DNA of 32,000 nucleotides from Promethearchaeota archaeon (GCA_016933055.1 JAFGBS010000002.1:30001-62000); one strand, 5' to 3'. Positions 25,704-31,536 are shown, numbered from the stretch's first letter. Numbers and translations are program-made. Notes: generated by a model from the sequence alone, not told the origin.

Positions 25704-27500
25704 CTAATGGGTAAAATAGCAATATAATCCATTTTTCTGAGATTTTTGCATTTTTACATAACCATATCGTTCAAACTGCATGATAGTACCAGGCTTTACC
25801 GTTTTAATGGTATTTTCAGCCTTTCCATGAGTAATAACTCCCGTTGGTTTCAATACGTGCACCTTGACATTGGATTCATATGGTACCCATTGGATCTTTC
25901 GGATAGAAGGTTCTACTTTTTCGGTTAGGAATCTAGCTTCGAACTTTTTTGGATGGACAGATTGGATCTCTACTGTGAATAAGTCTTTTAATCGAAATCG
26001 CGTCCCTTCCGAAAATTTGGGATATCTTACTTTAGTCTCCTTCCGAGACATCTGTATTTTCGTGTCTAATCGGGAAATGTATACGGATGCTTTATGATCT
26101 TTGGTTTTTAACTCAATTAATCGAGTACCTCGTTCTTCATAACTGGGATGGAGTGAGGGAGTAGATACATATCGCTCTTTTGGAAGATTAATTATATCCA
26201 ATTTAACAGGATCTTCTACAAACCAATATCGATTGGCATCTGAATCAATCAATTTTGTATTTTTTGCGTAAATCCATTTTTCGGAAAAACTAATTCCGCT
26301 TTGGGACATTCCCAAGTCCAACAAGGACTCACGCAATGCATCTGGTTGGATTCCTCTTGCTTCAAGTGATTGTAATGACCAAGTTCGGGGATCCTTCCAA
26401 CTTTCATATTCCCCCGTGTTAATCTTCTGCCGAGCCAGTGTTTTACTCAGTATGAATTCGTTACTAAATCGCATTCTTCCGTACAATAAAATAGCTGCAG
26501 GTTCCCAGCCCATTAAATCCCAAATATAATGTTCCATGAATCCTTCTTTCTGCAAATCTGCCCCCCGGATTATATGAGTTACTCCCAATTCATGATCATC
26601 AATACCCCAGGAAAAATCCAAAATTGGCCATACTCTATATTTGGTTCCAATTCGGGGATGCTCTGCATCAGATATACGCATTATAACATGATCACGTAAT
26701 GCAGGATCCTTTTGATCCATCCCTGTATTTATCCGTACTACGGCTTCTCTTTCCTCGTAAGATCCATCTAACATGTTTTTCCAGCGATCTAAATGAACAT
26801 CTATGGACAATTCTTTGCATGGACACGGTTTCCCTACCTTTTTGTACTTCTCCCGAAACACAGTTGCGTCACAAGTACATACATACGCTTCCCCCTTCTG
26901 GATGAGATCTTGTGCATAATTCTGATATATCTTTACCCGATCGCTTTTGTATATTACGTTGTTTTTATCATAATCTATTCCAAGCCATTCCAAGCCTTCT
27001 CGAATCAAATCGTATGCTTCAGGTATAATGTATTTTGCATTAGGATCGTTTTCAATAGCATCTTTAGTGGCTCCAATTGTGTCATCGTATACTAAGAGAA
27101 GTCGTCCATTATAGCGTTTTACATATTCATCATTTAATACAAGCATTCGGGCATTCCCAATATGTAATGCTCCACTTGGATAAGGAGCTAAACGCATAAC
27201 CACTTTCTTGGCGTTTGTTACATTGGGTAATTCCGGTAGTTCTTTTATTTCTGGTTCACTTTTTTTCTGTTCTAATGCTTCAGGTTCAAGATGTTGAAGT
27301 TTTGTAAGTTGTGCGGATTTATCCCATGAGTTTACTTCTAGTACGATTTTATCAATATGGGATTTTATCTCTTCAGACCTTGACCGATATTCGGGAAAAT
27401 CTCTCATAATTTTACCAATTACGGCATTGGACCTAGCTTCTCCATATTTCACTGCATTTTTGAGTGCTTCGATTAGTATGCATTTCTCTACTTCATCCAT
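25704..27500 (-). CDS. gltX: Glutamate--tRNA ligase, archaeal type
   Basis: RLAPYPSGALHIGN (HIGH motif), DDHELGVTHIIRG, SWKDPR and C-terminal QFERYGY. Confidence 0.97.
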   Translation of the reverse strand: MDEVEKCILIEALKNAVKYGEARSNAVIGKIMRDFPEYRSRSEEIKSHIDKIVLEVNSWDKSAQLTKLQHLEPEALEQKKSEPEIKELPELPNVTNAKKVVMRLAPYPSGALHIGNARMLVLNDEYVKRYNGRLLLVYDDTIGATKDAIENDPNAKYIIPEAYDLIREGLEWLGIDYDKNNVIYKSDRVKIYQNYAQDLIQKGEAYVCTCDATVFREKYKKVGKPCPCKELSIDVHLDRWKNMLDGSYEEREAVVRINTGMDQKDPALRDHVIMRISDAEHPRIGTKYRVWPILDFSWGIDDHELGVTHIIRGADLQKEGFMEHYIWDLMGWEPAAILLYGRMRFSNEFILSKTLARQKINTGEYESWKDPRTWSLQSLEARGIQPDALRESLLDLGMSQSGISFSEKWIYAKNTKLIDSDANRYWFVEDPVKLDIINLPKERYVSTPSLHPSYEERGTRLIELKTKDHKASVYISRLDTKIQMSRKETKVRYPKFSEGTRFRLKDLFTVEIQSVHPKKFEARFLTEKVEPSIRKIQWVPYESNVKVHVLKPTGVITHGKAENTIKTVKPGTIMQFERYGYVKMQKSQKNGLYCYFTH

Positions 27501-27571
27501 ATTCTCTCAAATACTGCCGATAAGAAAAAATTTATTTTAATACGAATAAGATAAGACTGGTTAAGATTTCA

Positions 27572-28210
27572 ATGAATATTATTAAAAAATTATCAAATGA
27601 AATGCATGCAAGCAAAACGATAAAACCCAGTTTTAAATTAGTTCATCTTCTCCTTAGTCTTGTCATTTTTCAACAGGAGACTCAAGGTATTGGTCGTTAT
27701 CGATTGGAAAACGAATTATGTCTTTCAGAGGGAAAGGTCAGATCCCTCTTAAAGCACATGAAACAAAAACATTTGATAGAAGTGGACAACAAATTAAATG
27801 TACATGTCCTAACTGAAAAAGGATATTCCACTTTAATTGATATCACAAAGATCCTAACTCCTCCGAAAGAACCCAATTTTGAGATTACTCAAATAGTGAT
27901 CGGAGATTTTGTCAGATACAGTATTGTGCATAATGGTAGATCACGGTTAAAAACAGGATTAGAACAAAGGGATGAAGCCATAAAAATTGGGGGATCGGGA
28001 GCTACTTGTTTAATCATGAAAAATGGAGAATTCTTTTTTCCACCTACTCCCACTATGCAAAATACCTCAATTCCTGTTGCTATTGACCCTAATAATTTGA
28101 ATTATCCATTTTCTGAGTCAGATGTTTTGGTCTTAGGAACCGGAAAGTCACAATATCTTGCCAATTTAGCTGCTATCGCAGCAGCCTTAAGTTTAGCCCA
28201 CCATGTATAG
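27572..28210 (+). CDS. DUF4443/PH0730-like winged-helix protein
   Basis: IGRYRLENELCLSEGKVRSLL (HTH), VLTEKG wing, and GLEQRDEAIKIGGSGA C-terminal signature. Confidence 0.75.
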   Translation: MNIIKKLSNEMHASKTIKPSFKLVHLLLSLVIFQQETQGIGRYRLENELCLSEGKVRSLLKHMKQKHLIEVDNKLNVHVLTEKGYSTLIDITKILTPPKEPNFEITQIVIGDFVRYSIVHNGRSRLKTGLEQRDEAIKIGGSGATCLIMKNGEFFFPPTPTMQNTSIPVAIDPNNLNYPFSESDVLVLGTGKSQYLANLAAIAAALSLAHHV

Positions 28211-28237
28211 TACCAAAATTATTTAAATTTTCATCGA

Positions 28238-28245
28238 TTATATTT
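28238..28245 (+). promoter_or_regulatory. Candidate TATA box for a leaderless transcript starting near the Thr-rich uORF
   Basis: TTATATTT ends 26 nt before ATG 28272. Confidence 0.35.
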
Positions 28246-28271
28246 GCTGTATCTCGCATATGTGAAAAAAA

Positions 28272-28358
28272 ATGGTTGCGCCTGTCAATTATTCTATAAA
28301 TAAGAAATTTCTAAATTCGGTCAATTTGACCACAGCAACCATAACTACTACTATTTAG
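28272..28358 (+). CDS. Putative threonine-rich leader peptide upstream of thrS
   Basis: Hand translation MVAPVNYSINKKFLNSVNLTTATITTTI*; 6 Thr and 2 Ile in the last 9 sense codons; same strand and directly upstream of thrS. Confidence 0.65.
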   Translation: MVAPVNYSINKKFLNSVNLTTATITTTI

Positions 28359-28420
28359 TGGGTAACTCTCATACTTACTCTGACAGGCGTGAGATCGAGA
28401 GAGAGAGTTAATCTTTTATT
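28272..28420 (+). promoter_or_regulatory. Attenuator-like leader with competing helices and a T-tract
   Basis: Perfect 8-9 bp complementary pairs 28272-79/28335-42, 28279-87/28381-89 and 28363-70/28403-10, followed by ATCTTTTATT. Confidence 0.55.
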
Positions 28421-28627
28421 AAAAAATACGATGATGATAATTATAAAAATATTTTCTTGGTAAAGGCAACATGTGTACAGTAGAGATTAAATATTTTAAG
28501 AGATGTAGGCAAATAGGGTGACTAGATAATTTTAAATACATATTTTGAATATTTTCCTATAAGATTAGAAATATTCACTTGTTGTGATCTAAGCTTTTAT
28601 GAATGACGAAATTTTGTAGTTGATTAT

Positions 28628-30730
28628 ATGAAGATACTAATGATCCATTCCGATGGAGCCTTTATGGAAAAAAAAATGAAAGCTACATCCAGTCCTCAAG
28701 ATTTTAAGGAAAAAGACTTGAAAATTGATGGATTGGTGCTATTTGCTTTCGTATCTGTGGAAGATCAGGATATTTTTGATACGTCTGTTATTGCAAAACA
28801 AGGAGCCAATGTTATTGAAGATGCAATAGAGCTGATAGAGGGTTTCCCCGATAAGATCGAGGAACATAATAAAGAAATTCGTGAATTCAATGAAAAACTC
28901 GAAAAACGCAGGAAACTTGCAAAAGATAATCCTAAAATCCCTACTCCCACGGAAAGTCTGAAATCCGAGAAAAAGCTTATCATGGATCGAAAATTTTACA
29001 CAGTTGATTCCATTTTGGTATACCCTTGGGCACATTTGAGTCGATTCTTAAGTCAAGAAAAAGAGTCCATGGAGGTATGTCCAAAAATAGCATCTATTCT
29101 CAGCGATCGAGGATATAAAGCCGATTTTTCTCCATTCGGATGGTATAAATCCTTTAGCTTGAACTGTTTAGGCCATGAAGTCGCGGAAATGTATCGGGAT
29201 GTGAAATTATCCATCCTCGCAGATGAGGTTCGAGCAAACTCTGTGTTCAAGATACTGACAGAGGACGGTAAAGTATTGCATTTATATGATCCTAAAAAAG
29301 ACACTAAGAATAAAGATATTGTTCCCGATCGTTATAAAGGAAAGGAATGGAAGTCGTTCCAAGAATTGATCGCTGATGAGGTTCTTGGATCTGGGGCGAC
29401 ACAAAAAAAGGAACCCCCCCACATCAAGATGATGCAGAGTATGGAATTGGCAGATTTTGATGATGCCAGTGATGCAGGGAACCTTCGGTGGTATACAAAA
29501 GGAGTGTTGATGAAAAATCTTGTGAAGGATTACTTGGAGAATGTAATGATAGAAAACGGTGCTATCTATGCGGACACACCCGTCATGTACACGGTTAAGA
29601 ATAAGAAACTTACAGCTCAAACGGCAAGATTCCCTGCAAAAACGTATTGGGTACATTCTGGGAATAATCGTTACTTATTGCGATTTGCGAACGATTTTCT
29701 CTTATTTAATATGTTTTCTCAAATGCAAATAAGGGAAGAAAGTTTACCATTGGGTGTATATGAATGGGAGACTTATTCATTCAGACGAGAGCAAAAAGGA
29801 GAATTATCCGGTTTAAGAAGACTACGAGCTTTTGTGATGCCAGATCTTCATACATTATGTAAAGATTTACCTCAGTCCGTTAAAGAGTTCAAAAAAGAAT
29901 TCGAAATGGTACAGAGAATCCTTAAGGACCTTGGAATAAATTCTCACATAGTTTTTAGAGCAACAGAACAATTCTGGGAGGAAAATAACGATTGGATTAT
30001 TAAGAGCATTAAGGAATGGGGTCAACCTGCAATCTTTGAGTTATGGCCCGAACGTTATTATTACTTCATCTTGAAGTTTGAGTGGCCCGTAATTGATTCT
30101 CAAGGCAAATCTGCAACGCTTTCTACCATCCAGATCGATGTAGAATCAAGCCAAGATTATATCGAGCAGTTTGGTGAGAAACGTCAAAAGTATAATATAA
30201 TATACACATCAAAAGATGGTAGTACGGGTCATCCGATTATTTTACATACCAGCCCCTCTGGGGCGTTCTGCCGAATCATCTGGGCATTGCTGGAATCTAA
30301 TGAAAAATATAAAGATGAGATAGTTACAGGATTTAAAACATGGCTCTCACCGGTACAAGTGCGAGTTATTCCAATTACGGATAAAGACAAGAGATATGCC
30401 GAAAAAATTATGATAAAACTAAATGATGTGAAAATTCGAGCAGATTATGATGATCGGGATGAGAAAATAGGCAAAAAAATACGCTCAGCGGAAGTAGAAT
30501 GGATCCCATATACAATTATTGTCGGATCAAAGGAACGGCAGAACAATACAATTTCAGTACGGAAACGATTAATCGGTGAAAAACTGGTAGACAATAAGAC
30601 TAACGAACAAATTCAAGATATAAAATTAGCAGATTTGAAAAAAATTATTAACAAGGAACTTAAGGGTTTCCCACGTAAAGAACTTCCCATACCCTTCCGG
30701 TACTACAGTAAAAAAATCAGTTTTCGATAA
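28628..30730 (+). CDS. thrS: Threonine--tRNA ligase, archaeal type with N-terminal DTD-like editing domain
   Basis: MKILMIHSD, YPWAHLS, PFGWYK (editing domain); FRREQKGELSGLRRLRAFVMPDLH (motif 2); C-terminal anticodon domain PVQVRVIP. Confidence 0.97.
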   Translation: MKILMIHSDGAFMEKKMKATSSPQDFKEKDLKIDGLVLFAFVSVEDQDIFDTSVIAKQGANVIEDAIELIEGFPDKIEEHNKEIREFNEKLEKRRKLAKDNPKIPTPTESLKSEKKLIMDRKFYTVDSILVYPWAHLSRFLSQEKESMEVCPKIASILSDRGYKADFSPFGWYKSFSLNCLGHEVAEMYRDVKLSILADEVRANSVFKILTEDGKVLHLYDPKKDTKNKDIVPDRYKGKEWKSFQELIADEVLGSGATQKKEPPHIKMMQSMELADFDDASDAGNLRWYTKGVLMKNLVKDYLENVMIENGAIYADTPVMYTVKNKKLTAQTARFPAKTYWVHSGNNRYLLRFANDFLLFNMFSQMQIREESLPLGVYEWETYSFRREQKGELSGLRRLRAFVMPDLHTLCKDLPQSVKEFKKEFEMVQRILKDLGINSHIVFRATEQFWEENNDWIIKSIKEWGQPAIFELWPERYYYFILKFEWPVIDSQGKSATLSTIQIDVESSQDYIEQFGEKRQKYNIIYTSKDGSTGHPIILHTSPSGAFCRIIWALLESNEKYKDEIVTGFKTWLSPVQVRVIPITDKDKRYAEKIMIKLNDVKIRADYDDRDEKIGKKIRSAEVEWIPYTIIVGSKERQNNTISVRKRLIGEKLVDNKTNEQIQDIKLADLKKIINKELKGFPRKELPIPFRYYSKKISFR

Positions 30731-30774
30731 AATCTGCTGTGTATTTTTATTTTTCATTCTCCTTATTAGCTCTT

Positions 30775-31536
30775 ATGAAAGTTATTTTTCATGAAGATTT
30801 TTATAATGTTTATGAATCCGATCCCGCTGCGGCGGCTGGTAGATTAGAGCCTATTGTGCGAAAGATACTTGATGATCCATTCTATCAGCTCATAGAACCA
30901 GTACCTGCAAAGAAGGAAGATATTTTACGAGTCCATACTGAACGACATTTTCAACGGATTCAATCAGATGCCTATGTATTTCTCATGGCGATGTTGGCAG
31001 CTGGTGGAGCGATTCAAGCCGCAGATATTGCATATACGGAAAAGACAGCAACATTTGGATTAATTCGCCCTCCAGGACATCATGCAAGCCGAGATTCGTG
31101 TTGGGGTTTTTGTTTTTTTAATAATATTGCAGTCAGTCTGTTATATTTAATGCAGAAATATCCTATTCATTCTGCATTTATTCTTGATTTTGATCTTCAC
31201 ACCGGAGATGGAAATATTAATATTTTGGAGGGATATCGGGATGTCTACATTCTTAATCCCTATTCCCATGATGAAATCAAATATGTCCGAGAAATTGAGG
31301 AAAAATTACTTAGTTTAAAGAATGTTGACATTTTTATTTGCAGTGCTGGGTTTGATAATGCTCAAGGGGATTGGGGAGGAGTATTATCTACGGAATCTTA
31401 CCATAAAATTGGTATGCTACTTAAGAAATACAGCCAGAAACTGTGTGAAGGTCGTCGTTATGCTTTACTAGAAGGAGGATATAACTATTCATTAATGCCA
31501 ACCAACTTTGATGGTTTCTGTAAGGGATTTGGATGA
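30775..31536 (+). CDS. Histone deacetylase family (HDAC/AcuC-like) zinc deacetylase
   Basis: RPPGHHA, WGFCFFNN, DFDLHTGDG, SAGFD and LLEGGY motifs. ATG 30775 is preferred over GTG 30739. Confidence 0.93.
   Translation: MKVIFHEDFYNVYESDPAAAAGRLEPIVRKILDDPFYQLIEPVPAKKEDILRVHTERHFQRIQSDAYVFLMAMLAAGGAIQAADIAYTEKTATFGLIRPPGHHASRDSCWGFCFFNNIAVSLLYLMQKYPIHSAFILDFDLHTGDGNINILEGYRDVYILNPYSHDEIKYVREIEEKLLSLKNVDIFICSAGFDNAQGDWGGVLSTESYHKIGMLLKKYSQKLCEGRRYALLEGGYNYSLMPTNFDGFCKGFG

Follow-up and report, generated by a model that had tools for sequence, protein, structure and literature searches.

The threonyl-tRNA synthetase gene (thrS) of an Asgard archaeon is preceded by a short open reading frame ending in threonine codons, and the start region of that frame can pair either with those Thr codons or with a box beyond the frame's stop codon. 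The best reading of this Thr leader is an attenuator-like switch with unusual wiring, though its parts merit different degrees of trust. That it contains a sensor, a translated-looking Thr-codon frame whose start region toggles between Thr codons and post-stop box, seems highly probable from the comparison of relatives. For the element as a whole, a leader-peptide, attenuator-like cis switch of thrS that senses Thr-tRNA via a translating ribosome and acts by termination at a U-tract has slightly the better of an even chance. The most specific version, ribosome-mediated transcription attenuation in which the helix between start region and post-stop box closes around a Thr-stalled ribosome and termination before thrS is prevented, is tentative, with the balance a little against it. 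What would follow from such a switch? Leader-peptide attenuation, of which such a frame within RNA of two rival folds is the hallmark, is a textbook bacterial mechanism in which the ribosome must closely trail RNA polymerase. Direct evidence for archaeal transcription-translation coupling is scarce (PMC13681488), and if the reading is true, the prokaryotes most closely related to eukaryotes control a gene by means of functional coupling. The attenuator topology would also be one not known from bacteria, an alternative switch wiring in which the first helix has the regulatory codons in its 3′ strand and the mobile strand is the region of the start codon. At ~170 nt, the Lokiarchaeia Thr-codon switch would offer a compact template for testing coupling, U-tract/FttA termination and co-transcriptional folding.

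The stretch of DNA analysed, here termed the window, is 32,000 nt long, and the coordinates of its relevant features, counted from its first letter, are collected in Table 1. A Pfam search of its thrS, presumed to be the gene under control of the Thr leader, finds editing (PF08915), class II core (PF00587) and anticodon-binding (PF03129) domains. Because the nearest ThrRS homologues carry Promethearchaeota or Lokiarchaeota names (the Lokiarchaeum ossiferum enzyme is 61% identical), the host is placed as a Lokiarchaeial Asgard archaeon (Promethearchaeota). From the leader stop codon to the thrS ATG there are ~270 nt of untranslated RNA, and from the U-tract to thrS ~210 nt; on the 5′ side of the leader the + strand carries a DUF4443/winged-helix gene at 27572-28210 and the - strand a GluRS gene.

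Table 1. Features of the Thr leader and its surroundings in the window
Feature	Coordinates	Strand	Basis
TATA-like promoter block AAATTATTTAAATTTTC; TTTAAAT at 28222-28228	28216..28232	+	unchanged among genus members, flanks diverged
Shine-Dalgarno-like GUGA, 7-10 nt 5′ of leader AUG	28262..28265	+	sequence; putative function
Leader ORF, 28 codons, MVAPVNYSINKKFLNSVNLTTATITTTI; 6 Thr within last 9 codons; Thr run 28329-28352; stop 28356-28358	28272..28358	+	sequence and homologous frames
5′ box: start codon and first five codons; strand common to two rival helices	28272..28288	+	duplex folding, relatives
Small hairpin GGUCA-AUU-UGACC; 3′ half overlaps proximal arm	28319..28331	+	sequence; genus conservation
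Proximal arm UUGAC...GCAACCAU, codons Leu-Thr-Thr-Ala-Thr-Ile; with 5′ box forms helix P1, -18 kcal/mol	28326..28342	+	compensatory changes; shuffles 2/1000
5′ strand of post-stop hairpin H3, UAACUCUC	28363..28370	+	pairing check, folding
Distal box UGACAGGCGU..GAUC, upper part of H3; other 5′-box partner, -20.8 kcal/mol	28381..28396	+	covariation; shuffles 2/1000
3′ strand of H3, GAGAGUUA	28403..28410	+	pairing check, folding
U-rich tract UUUUAUU, 3 nt past H3; candidate termination site	28414..28420	+	sequence; putative function
Second genus-conserved block TGATCTAAGCTTTTATG.AT.ACGAA.TTTTGT just 5′ of thrS	28583..28617	+	genus conservation
thrS, archaeal-type threonyl-tRNA synthetase	28628..30730	+	Pfam PF08915, PF00587, PF03129; homologues named threonine--tRNA ligase

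Four pairings were claimed in the initial annotation, and a script check found each to be an exact reverse complement where it had been placed: ATGGTTGC (28272-79) with GCAACCAT (28335-42), CGCCTGTCA (28279-87) with TGACAGGCG (28381-89), TAACTCTC (28363-70) with GAGAGTTA (28403-10), and GGTCA (28319-23) with TGACC (28327-31). The (GA)n run and the tail ATCTTTTATT (28411-20) are likewise present. Both of the rival helices exceed their first description, the start-codon arm ATGGTTGC:GCAACCAT being extended by GTCAA (28284-88) with TTGAC (28326-30), and the second helix being lengthened to GGUUGCGCCUGUCA paired with UGACAGGCGU..GAUC (28381-96) at -20.8 kcal/mol. The mutual competition that had been proposed holds, one 5′ box having as alternative partners the Thr codons or the post-stop box, the latter beginning ~22 nt 3′ of the leader stop.

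Could all this be chance complementarity beside a chance frame in AT-rich intergenic DNA? Intergenic G+C is 28%, and U4 runs and short hairpins are common in such sequence. However, segment 28260-28430 folds at -37.5 kcal/mol (z = -3.2), a value equalled by 0/200 shuffles, and when the partner regions in the window were dinucleotide-shuffled each helix was matched in 2/1000 cases and both jointly in 0/1000; for five sequences representing all three lineages described below, the corresponding counts were 1-17/1000 for each helix and 0/1000 for both. When the 5′ box was duplex-folded with all of the sequence 3′ of it, 7/7 leaders tested had the same two best partners, a proximal one at +50..+70 (-13 to -18 kcal/mol), which overlaps the first Thr codons, and a distal one at +106..+126 (-20 to -25 kcal/mol), ~22 nt past the stop. 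The observed pairings are confirmed as real and beyond chance. With shuffle tests, conserved islands that match the arms, compensatory changes and recurrence in three lineages all against it, the chance explanation is effectively refuted and keeps hardly any probability.

The relatives on which this comparison draws came from thrS upstream regions of 40 related genomes, from contigs encoding the closest ThrRS and from one metagenome pattern scan, and fall into three lineages (ThrRS identity 80-83% for the genus, 68% for lineage 2 and 68% for lineage 3). The genus leaders are that of the window (G000), G001 (L002; MVAPVIFNKSDNSMELVSLTTATTTTTYL), L151 (...LTTATTTTTIL) and L176 (...LTTATATTTHL); lineage 2 comprises L152 (MITSVIQIQFRNLINFYAKTAVTTTIVF), L160 and the truncated L159, and lineage 3 is L153 (MIESRLSNFIFIIIIFSTTEMTTTTTSST). 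L177 is identical to L002 over the leader, probably represents the same genome as G001 and was not counted separately, and L175 is a sequence without the leader region. The metagenome scan yielded two true relatives, L159 and L160, together with one chance match (L161), and a 16-mer scan of genome contigs (L031-L150) returned chance matches only. Eight distinct leaders in three lineages share the frame with its Thr run, both partners of the 5′ box and the post-stop hairpin; within the genus the conserved islands are the helix arms and the TATA-like block, the sequence between having diverged. Gene order in the genus (window 25704-31536; L176, L177, L175) is GluRS (-), DUF4443/winged-helix (+), Thr leader, thrS and a histone-deacetylase-family gene, and in lineages 2 and 3 the thrS neighbours are others, DinB-like or FTCD. 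The DUF4443 protein has an N-terminal domain of DNA-binding type and might be a regulator.

For comparison between lineages the helices were anchored on CUGUC, the core of the 5′ box, which is invariant across all leaders; MAFFT alignments misplaced the lineage 2 distal box and the L153 proximal arm, and helix-anchored tables and model-based alignments were used instead. Two adjacent P1 pairs, U:A and G:C in the genus, have become C:G and A:U in both other lineages, a fully compensatory change, and a third, G:C in most leaders, is A:U in L153. In the distal helix those same two 5′-box positions face an unchanged G and U, so that the genus has U:G and G:U where the other lineages have C:G and A:U. 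At a different place in the distal helix C:G gives way to U:A in lineage 2 and to U:G in L153, a further pair is G:U, G:C or A:U, and in L176 a distal U:G has become U:A. When the strand common to both helices changes, one partner changes with it and the other still pairs through wobble, as selection on both pairings would predict. On the model-based alignment A7, P1 and H3 together reach 90.8% pairing, with both bases altered in 8 pairs, as against 25-53% for slid controls; the 90.8% is inflated because A7 was fitted to the P1 and H3 structure. The distal helix is absent from the model behind A7 and is 92.4% paired on it (slid controls 18-55%), with one doubly and three singly changed pairs; as there are just three independent lineages, these covariation figures are indicative and of low statistical power. 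Compensatory change in homologous leaders had been set beforehand as a test of the switch, and it was found for both pairings across the three lineages. Two lesser elements of the initial annotation are more local: the GGTCA/TGACC hairpin by the first Thr codon pairs exactly but is kept in the genus only, lineages 2 and 3 having nothing that corresponds to it, and the (GA)n run, to which a role in register shifts had been ascribed, is there in this genome only, its relatives carrying AAAAAGGAGAG or AAAGAGGAGAG.

Is the frame itself maintained? In all eight distinct leaders, seven of them additional to that of the window, a homologous frame opens with ATG, remains open for 26-29 codons and has an in-frame run of 3-7 Thr near its end; the chance of an open frame of that length is ~0.09 per lineage in AT-rich DNA, and the expected proportion of Thr codons is 5%. 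The Thr codons vary synonymously among relatives (ACA/ACT/ACC), there is also replacement of Ile by Thr, and the frame survives indels that are not multiples of three. Compared with lineage 2, L153 has 5 nt more before the box and 8 nt fewer after it, the frame being restored, so that the box CACGUCUGUCA is in different reading frames and the ATG and Thr run are still in phase; in L159 the leader has a 6-nt in-frame deletion. Outside the Thr run the peptide is unconserved among the eight leaders, a conservation pattern such as would be expected of a leader peptide rather than of a functional small protein. The GTGAA of the Shine-Dalgarno-like site is kept among genus members, with the weaker CTGAAG or TTGAGA in the other lineages. 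The leader ORF is putatively translated. Throughout the 3.76-Mb genome the strongest Thr-run small ORF is the one directly 5′ of thrS (6 Thr in 8 codons, ATG start), and a scan of all its small intergenic ORFs with amino-acid runs ranked the thrS leader cleanest. Other small ORFs with runs (Cys, Val, Trp and other Thr) were set aside as chance occurrences, their neighbours being unrelated (Ras, TBP, arginase, MFS).

The properties of the frame bear on an explanation in which the ribosome plays no part, the RNA binding ThrRS, uncharged tRNA-Thr or some other factor and the ORF being incidental. That explanation draws on the concentration of the most conserved nucleotides in the helix arms and not in the peptide, on the differing frame of the 5′ box between L152 and L153, and on the pairing of the AUG in both folds. 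It is nevertheless improbable. The ATG, open frame and in-frame Thr run persist in 8/8 leaders through frame-restoring indels and synonymous Thr changes, and because most Thr codons are outside the arm, RNA pairing is insufficient to explain why the run is kept. Neither a T-box nor any other Rfam match (E up to 10) was found, nor a 7-nt loop with a Thr anticodon, nor likeness to the anticodon arms of the genome's tRNA-Thr, and with 210 nt between its 3′ end and the start of thrS the element could not occlude the thrS ribosome-binding site.

The two folds of the attenuator-like switch are closely balanced. When first one helix and then the other was enforced, the gap between the best total energies was just -4.2 to +2.8 kcal/mol across six leaders; folded unconstrained, G000, L152, L160 and L153 form P1 with H3, and G001 and L151, a point against the switch, slightly favour the distal helix even without a ribosome. 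When the bases beneath a 30-nt footprint centred on the Thr codons were kept unpaired, G000, L152 and L153 took the distal helix as their minimum-energy fold, and H3 was lost. The proposal that ribosome position decides which helices form is to that extent borne out in these three predicted folds, but L160, which keeps H3 under the same footprint, does not switch. A footprint at the stop codon gives a predicted fold identical to that of the stall, from which it follows that any discrimination must be kinetic, as in bacterial attenuators. The leader AUG is base-paired in both folds, which would limit translation to ribosomes that load during RNA synthesis.

How might the switch work? A promoter ~50 nt upstream would yield a transcript opening with the 28-codon ORF, its Thr codons at the end, and the first 16 nt of the ORF (the 5′ box, AUG included) could pair with the first Thr codons, as P1, or with the distal box. 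With Thr-tRNA abundant, or with no ribosome loaded, P1 would form first, the distal box would be held in H3 with the U-tract next to it, and transcription would halt before thrS. With Thr-tRNA scarce, a ribosome would stall on the Thr codons and cover the proximal arm; the 5′ box behind it would be free to pair with the distal box once that is made, the resulting helix would disrupt H3, and RNA polymerase would continue into thrS. Stalling, termination at the U-tract and read-through into thrS are the putative steps of this scheme.

Its output is less well marked than its sensor. H3 encloses the distal box at the same place in all lineages with differing stem sequences (AACUCUC/GAGAGUU in the genus, UUUCCC/GGGAAG and CCAC/GUGG in lineage 2, GUCCU/AGGAC in L153), and taken alone it is modestly stable, with z of -2.0, -1.4, -1.2, -1.2, -3.2 and -0.07 against shuffles. 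A U-run stands within 3 nt of it in G000 and G001 (U4) and in L153 (U6); G001 has U4 and then U5, L151 has U3C and later U5, and in lineage 2 no U-run was found up to 60 nt from H3. For intrinsic termination in archaea a run of U4 is short. A scan for bacterial-type terminators did not flag H3 and the U-tract. The distal helix shares bases with the H3 stem in L153 and with the inner H3 stem in lineage 2; in this genome it overlaps weak inner H3 pairs only, and as it has no bases in common with the outer stem the two could coexist as a pseudoknot. Termination at the U-tract is a putative output and the weak point of the scheme.

The main alternative keeps the same ribosome and Thr-codon sensor and gives it a different output: H3 and the U-tract would be no intrinsic terminator, and the folds would expose or hide RNA for termination by FttA/aCPSF1 and Spt5, for a nuclease or for some other step. 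We regard it as unlikely, at appreciably lower probability than termination at the U-tract by the switch. In its favour, no part of the element is weaker or less conserved than the hairpin and U-tract, lineage 2 having no U-tract and the z of H3 ranging from -0.07 to -3.2; there are the ~270 nt of untranslated RNA ahead of thrS; and a beta-CASP protein as large as aCPSF1/FttA (642 aa) is encoded in the genome. Published archaeal termination involves U-rich 3′ ends together with FttA (PMC13681488). On the other hand, nothing in the sequence is specific to FttA, and the post-stop hairpin is at the same place, with changed sequence, in all three lineages; moreover a U4-U6 run ≤3 nt from the stem, seen in 3/4 of the genus-plus-L153 sequence types, would be superfluous to a pure factor model. 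The suggestion in the initial annotation that what the switch gates is aCPSF1/FttA and not a hairpin terminator is made possible by that protein but is a matter of pure inference.

With the usual archaeal spacing between TATA box and start site, the TATA-like block upstream of the leader would place the transcript start near 28250; 5′ of the leader in lineage 2 there is a comparable ATTTAAAT. A point against the attenuator-like switch is the second conserved block, which ~30 nt 5′ of the thrS ATG contains a TATA-like TTTTATGA and may be a thrS-proximal promoter or another element, so that thrS could have a promoter of its own. A promoter at that place would give a nearly leaderless thrS mRNA, which would clash with the Shine-Dalgarno-like GTGAT/TTGAT 8-12 nt before the ATG. 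Between U-tract and thrS (28405-28650) RNAalifold found no convincing conserved structure. From three metatranscriptome runs of one study nothing mapped to 28150-28750, which is neutral on expression.

The thrS-proximal block, with the ~210 nt that separate the U-tract from thrS, also lends itself to the idea that the leader is an independent small transcript, a small RNA or small-protein gene with its own terminator, that merely lies beside a thrS transcribed from a promoter at ~28595. This too is improbable, about as much so as the ribosome-independent element, as the Thr leader is found 5′ of thrS in three lineages despite their other neighbours (DUF4443 in the genus, DinB-like or FTCD elsewhere), it has no further copy in the genome nor elsewhere in 151 genomes of the order, the peptide is unconserved save for its Thr run, and, regulation apart, there is little to account for Thr codons being linked to ThrRS.

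A covariance model (R1) built from the genus leaders detects lineage 2 at E 1e-6 to 5e-4 and did not detect L153, which was analysed via duplex folding only. R1 finds a single copy in this genome and matches in 2/151 genomes of the order, both in the genus, and for the 14 other aminoacyl-tRNA synthetase genes of the genome no leader with cognate codons was found, a point against the switch. As far as tested, a 5′ box with two partners is particular to this element. With one copy, unrelated genes after the other candidates and 14 synthetase genes lacking such a leader, the Thr leader is a single dedicated device in this organism and not part of a genome-wide system. In the window no Rfam family reached its gathering score and no tRNA was found; matches resembling C/D-box snoRNAs at ~28424-28461 and 28573-28650 (E 2-8) are weak and unconserved and were rejected. 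No Thr leader was found at 33 thrS loci with 53-66% ThrRS identity (L003-L030, L154-L157). A small 'TTIT' ORF 5′ of thrS in L018, L024 and L029 proved to be the antisense of a divergent gene.

Among the closest known systems is E. coli pheST, whose attenuator has the Phe-rich pheM leader peptide and in which a stalled ribosome masks the first strand, leaving strands 2 and 3 to pair. In both cases a synthetase gene follows a small frame with many codons for the cognate amino acid, rival RNA structures are succeeded by a hairpin and U-run before the structural gene, and the quantity sensed is, here as a proposal, the charged cognate tRNA. However, pheST/pheM is bacterial and unrelated to the Thr leader by sequence or Rfam, and the wiring differs: here the regulatory codons lie in the first helix's 3′ strand, and the proposed antiterminator would form when the region of the start codon, behind the ribosome, pairs with a box from the terminator loop, so that the helix would close around the stalled ribosome. 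The host differs too, being archaeal, and its RNA polymerase is eukaryote-like and follows other rules of termination. With thrL of Enterobacteria (Rfam Thr_leader, RF00506) the element has in common an alternation of Thr and Ile near the peptide end (here LTTATITTTI) followed by switchable hairpins, and the length scale, with ~57 nt from stop codon to U-tract here; thrL controls biosynthetic genes and not a synthetase, its helix topology differs, and RF00506 gave no match in 28200-28650 (E up to 10). The element would act like the pheST and thrL attenuators and, as judged by the want of any Rfam match, is not their homologue. The full-text literature searched yielded no archaeal leader-peptide attenuator.

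Other thrS genes are controlled without leader translation. In E. coli ThrRS binds a tRNA-like leader, a translational operator that overlaps the thrS ribosome-binding site and displays anticodon-like loops. T-box leaders of thrS in Firmicutes bind uncharged tRNA, and for neither is translation of the leader needed. Both resemble the present case, as proposed, in thrS feedback via a structured 5′ leader that reports Thr-tRNA status. T-box identity was rejected, there being no covariance-model match in 28200-28650 (E up to 10) and the UGGN in the 5′ box being confined to the genus and lost in lineages 2 and 3. An operator of the E. coli type was rejected as well, as the element lies ~210 nt short of the thrS start and has no anticodon-like 7-nt loop; nor was any likeness to the anticodon arms of the genome's tRNA-Thr (CGU/UGU) found in it.

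In a large sister family (f3, L014-L030) there is, ~130 nt before thrS, a short and highly conserved intergenic region, TTTAAATATA ... ATCAAAAG.AAGAAAAATATTTAGGATTTTTT, which a divergent gene shares and which has no leader ORF; control of thrS in f3 must differ. A whole-genome ARAGORN search (G000; contigs C2, C6 and others) returned just 26 tRNA genes, the Thr tRNAs among them having CGU and UGU anticodons only; a GGU isoacceptor was not found, although ACC or ACU makes up 5/6 of the Thr codons in the leader. The gap may be due to tRNA genes with introns or to the 9% of the genome that is missing. Beyond the leader a GTG-started 24-codon ORF (28389-28463, MRSRERVNLLLKNTMMIIIKIFSW) has its start within the distal box and 17-codon counterparts in G001 and L151 (MRPKRRVDF...); because the similarity is confined to the structured part it is judged to be probably incidental. 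In lineage 2 a four-codon mini-ORF, AUGAUUGARAUUUAA (MIEI), lies directly 3′ of the post-stop hairpin (L152 ~1812-1830; L160 ~1098-1115), and in L153 GUGAUUGAAAAUAUUAAAAUUUAG begins in the distal box, RUGAUUGA being common to L153 and the lineage 2 mini-ORF.
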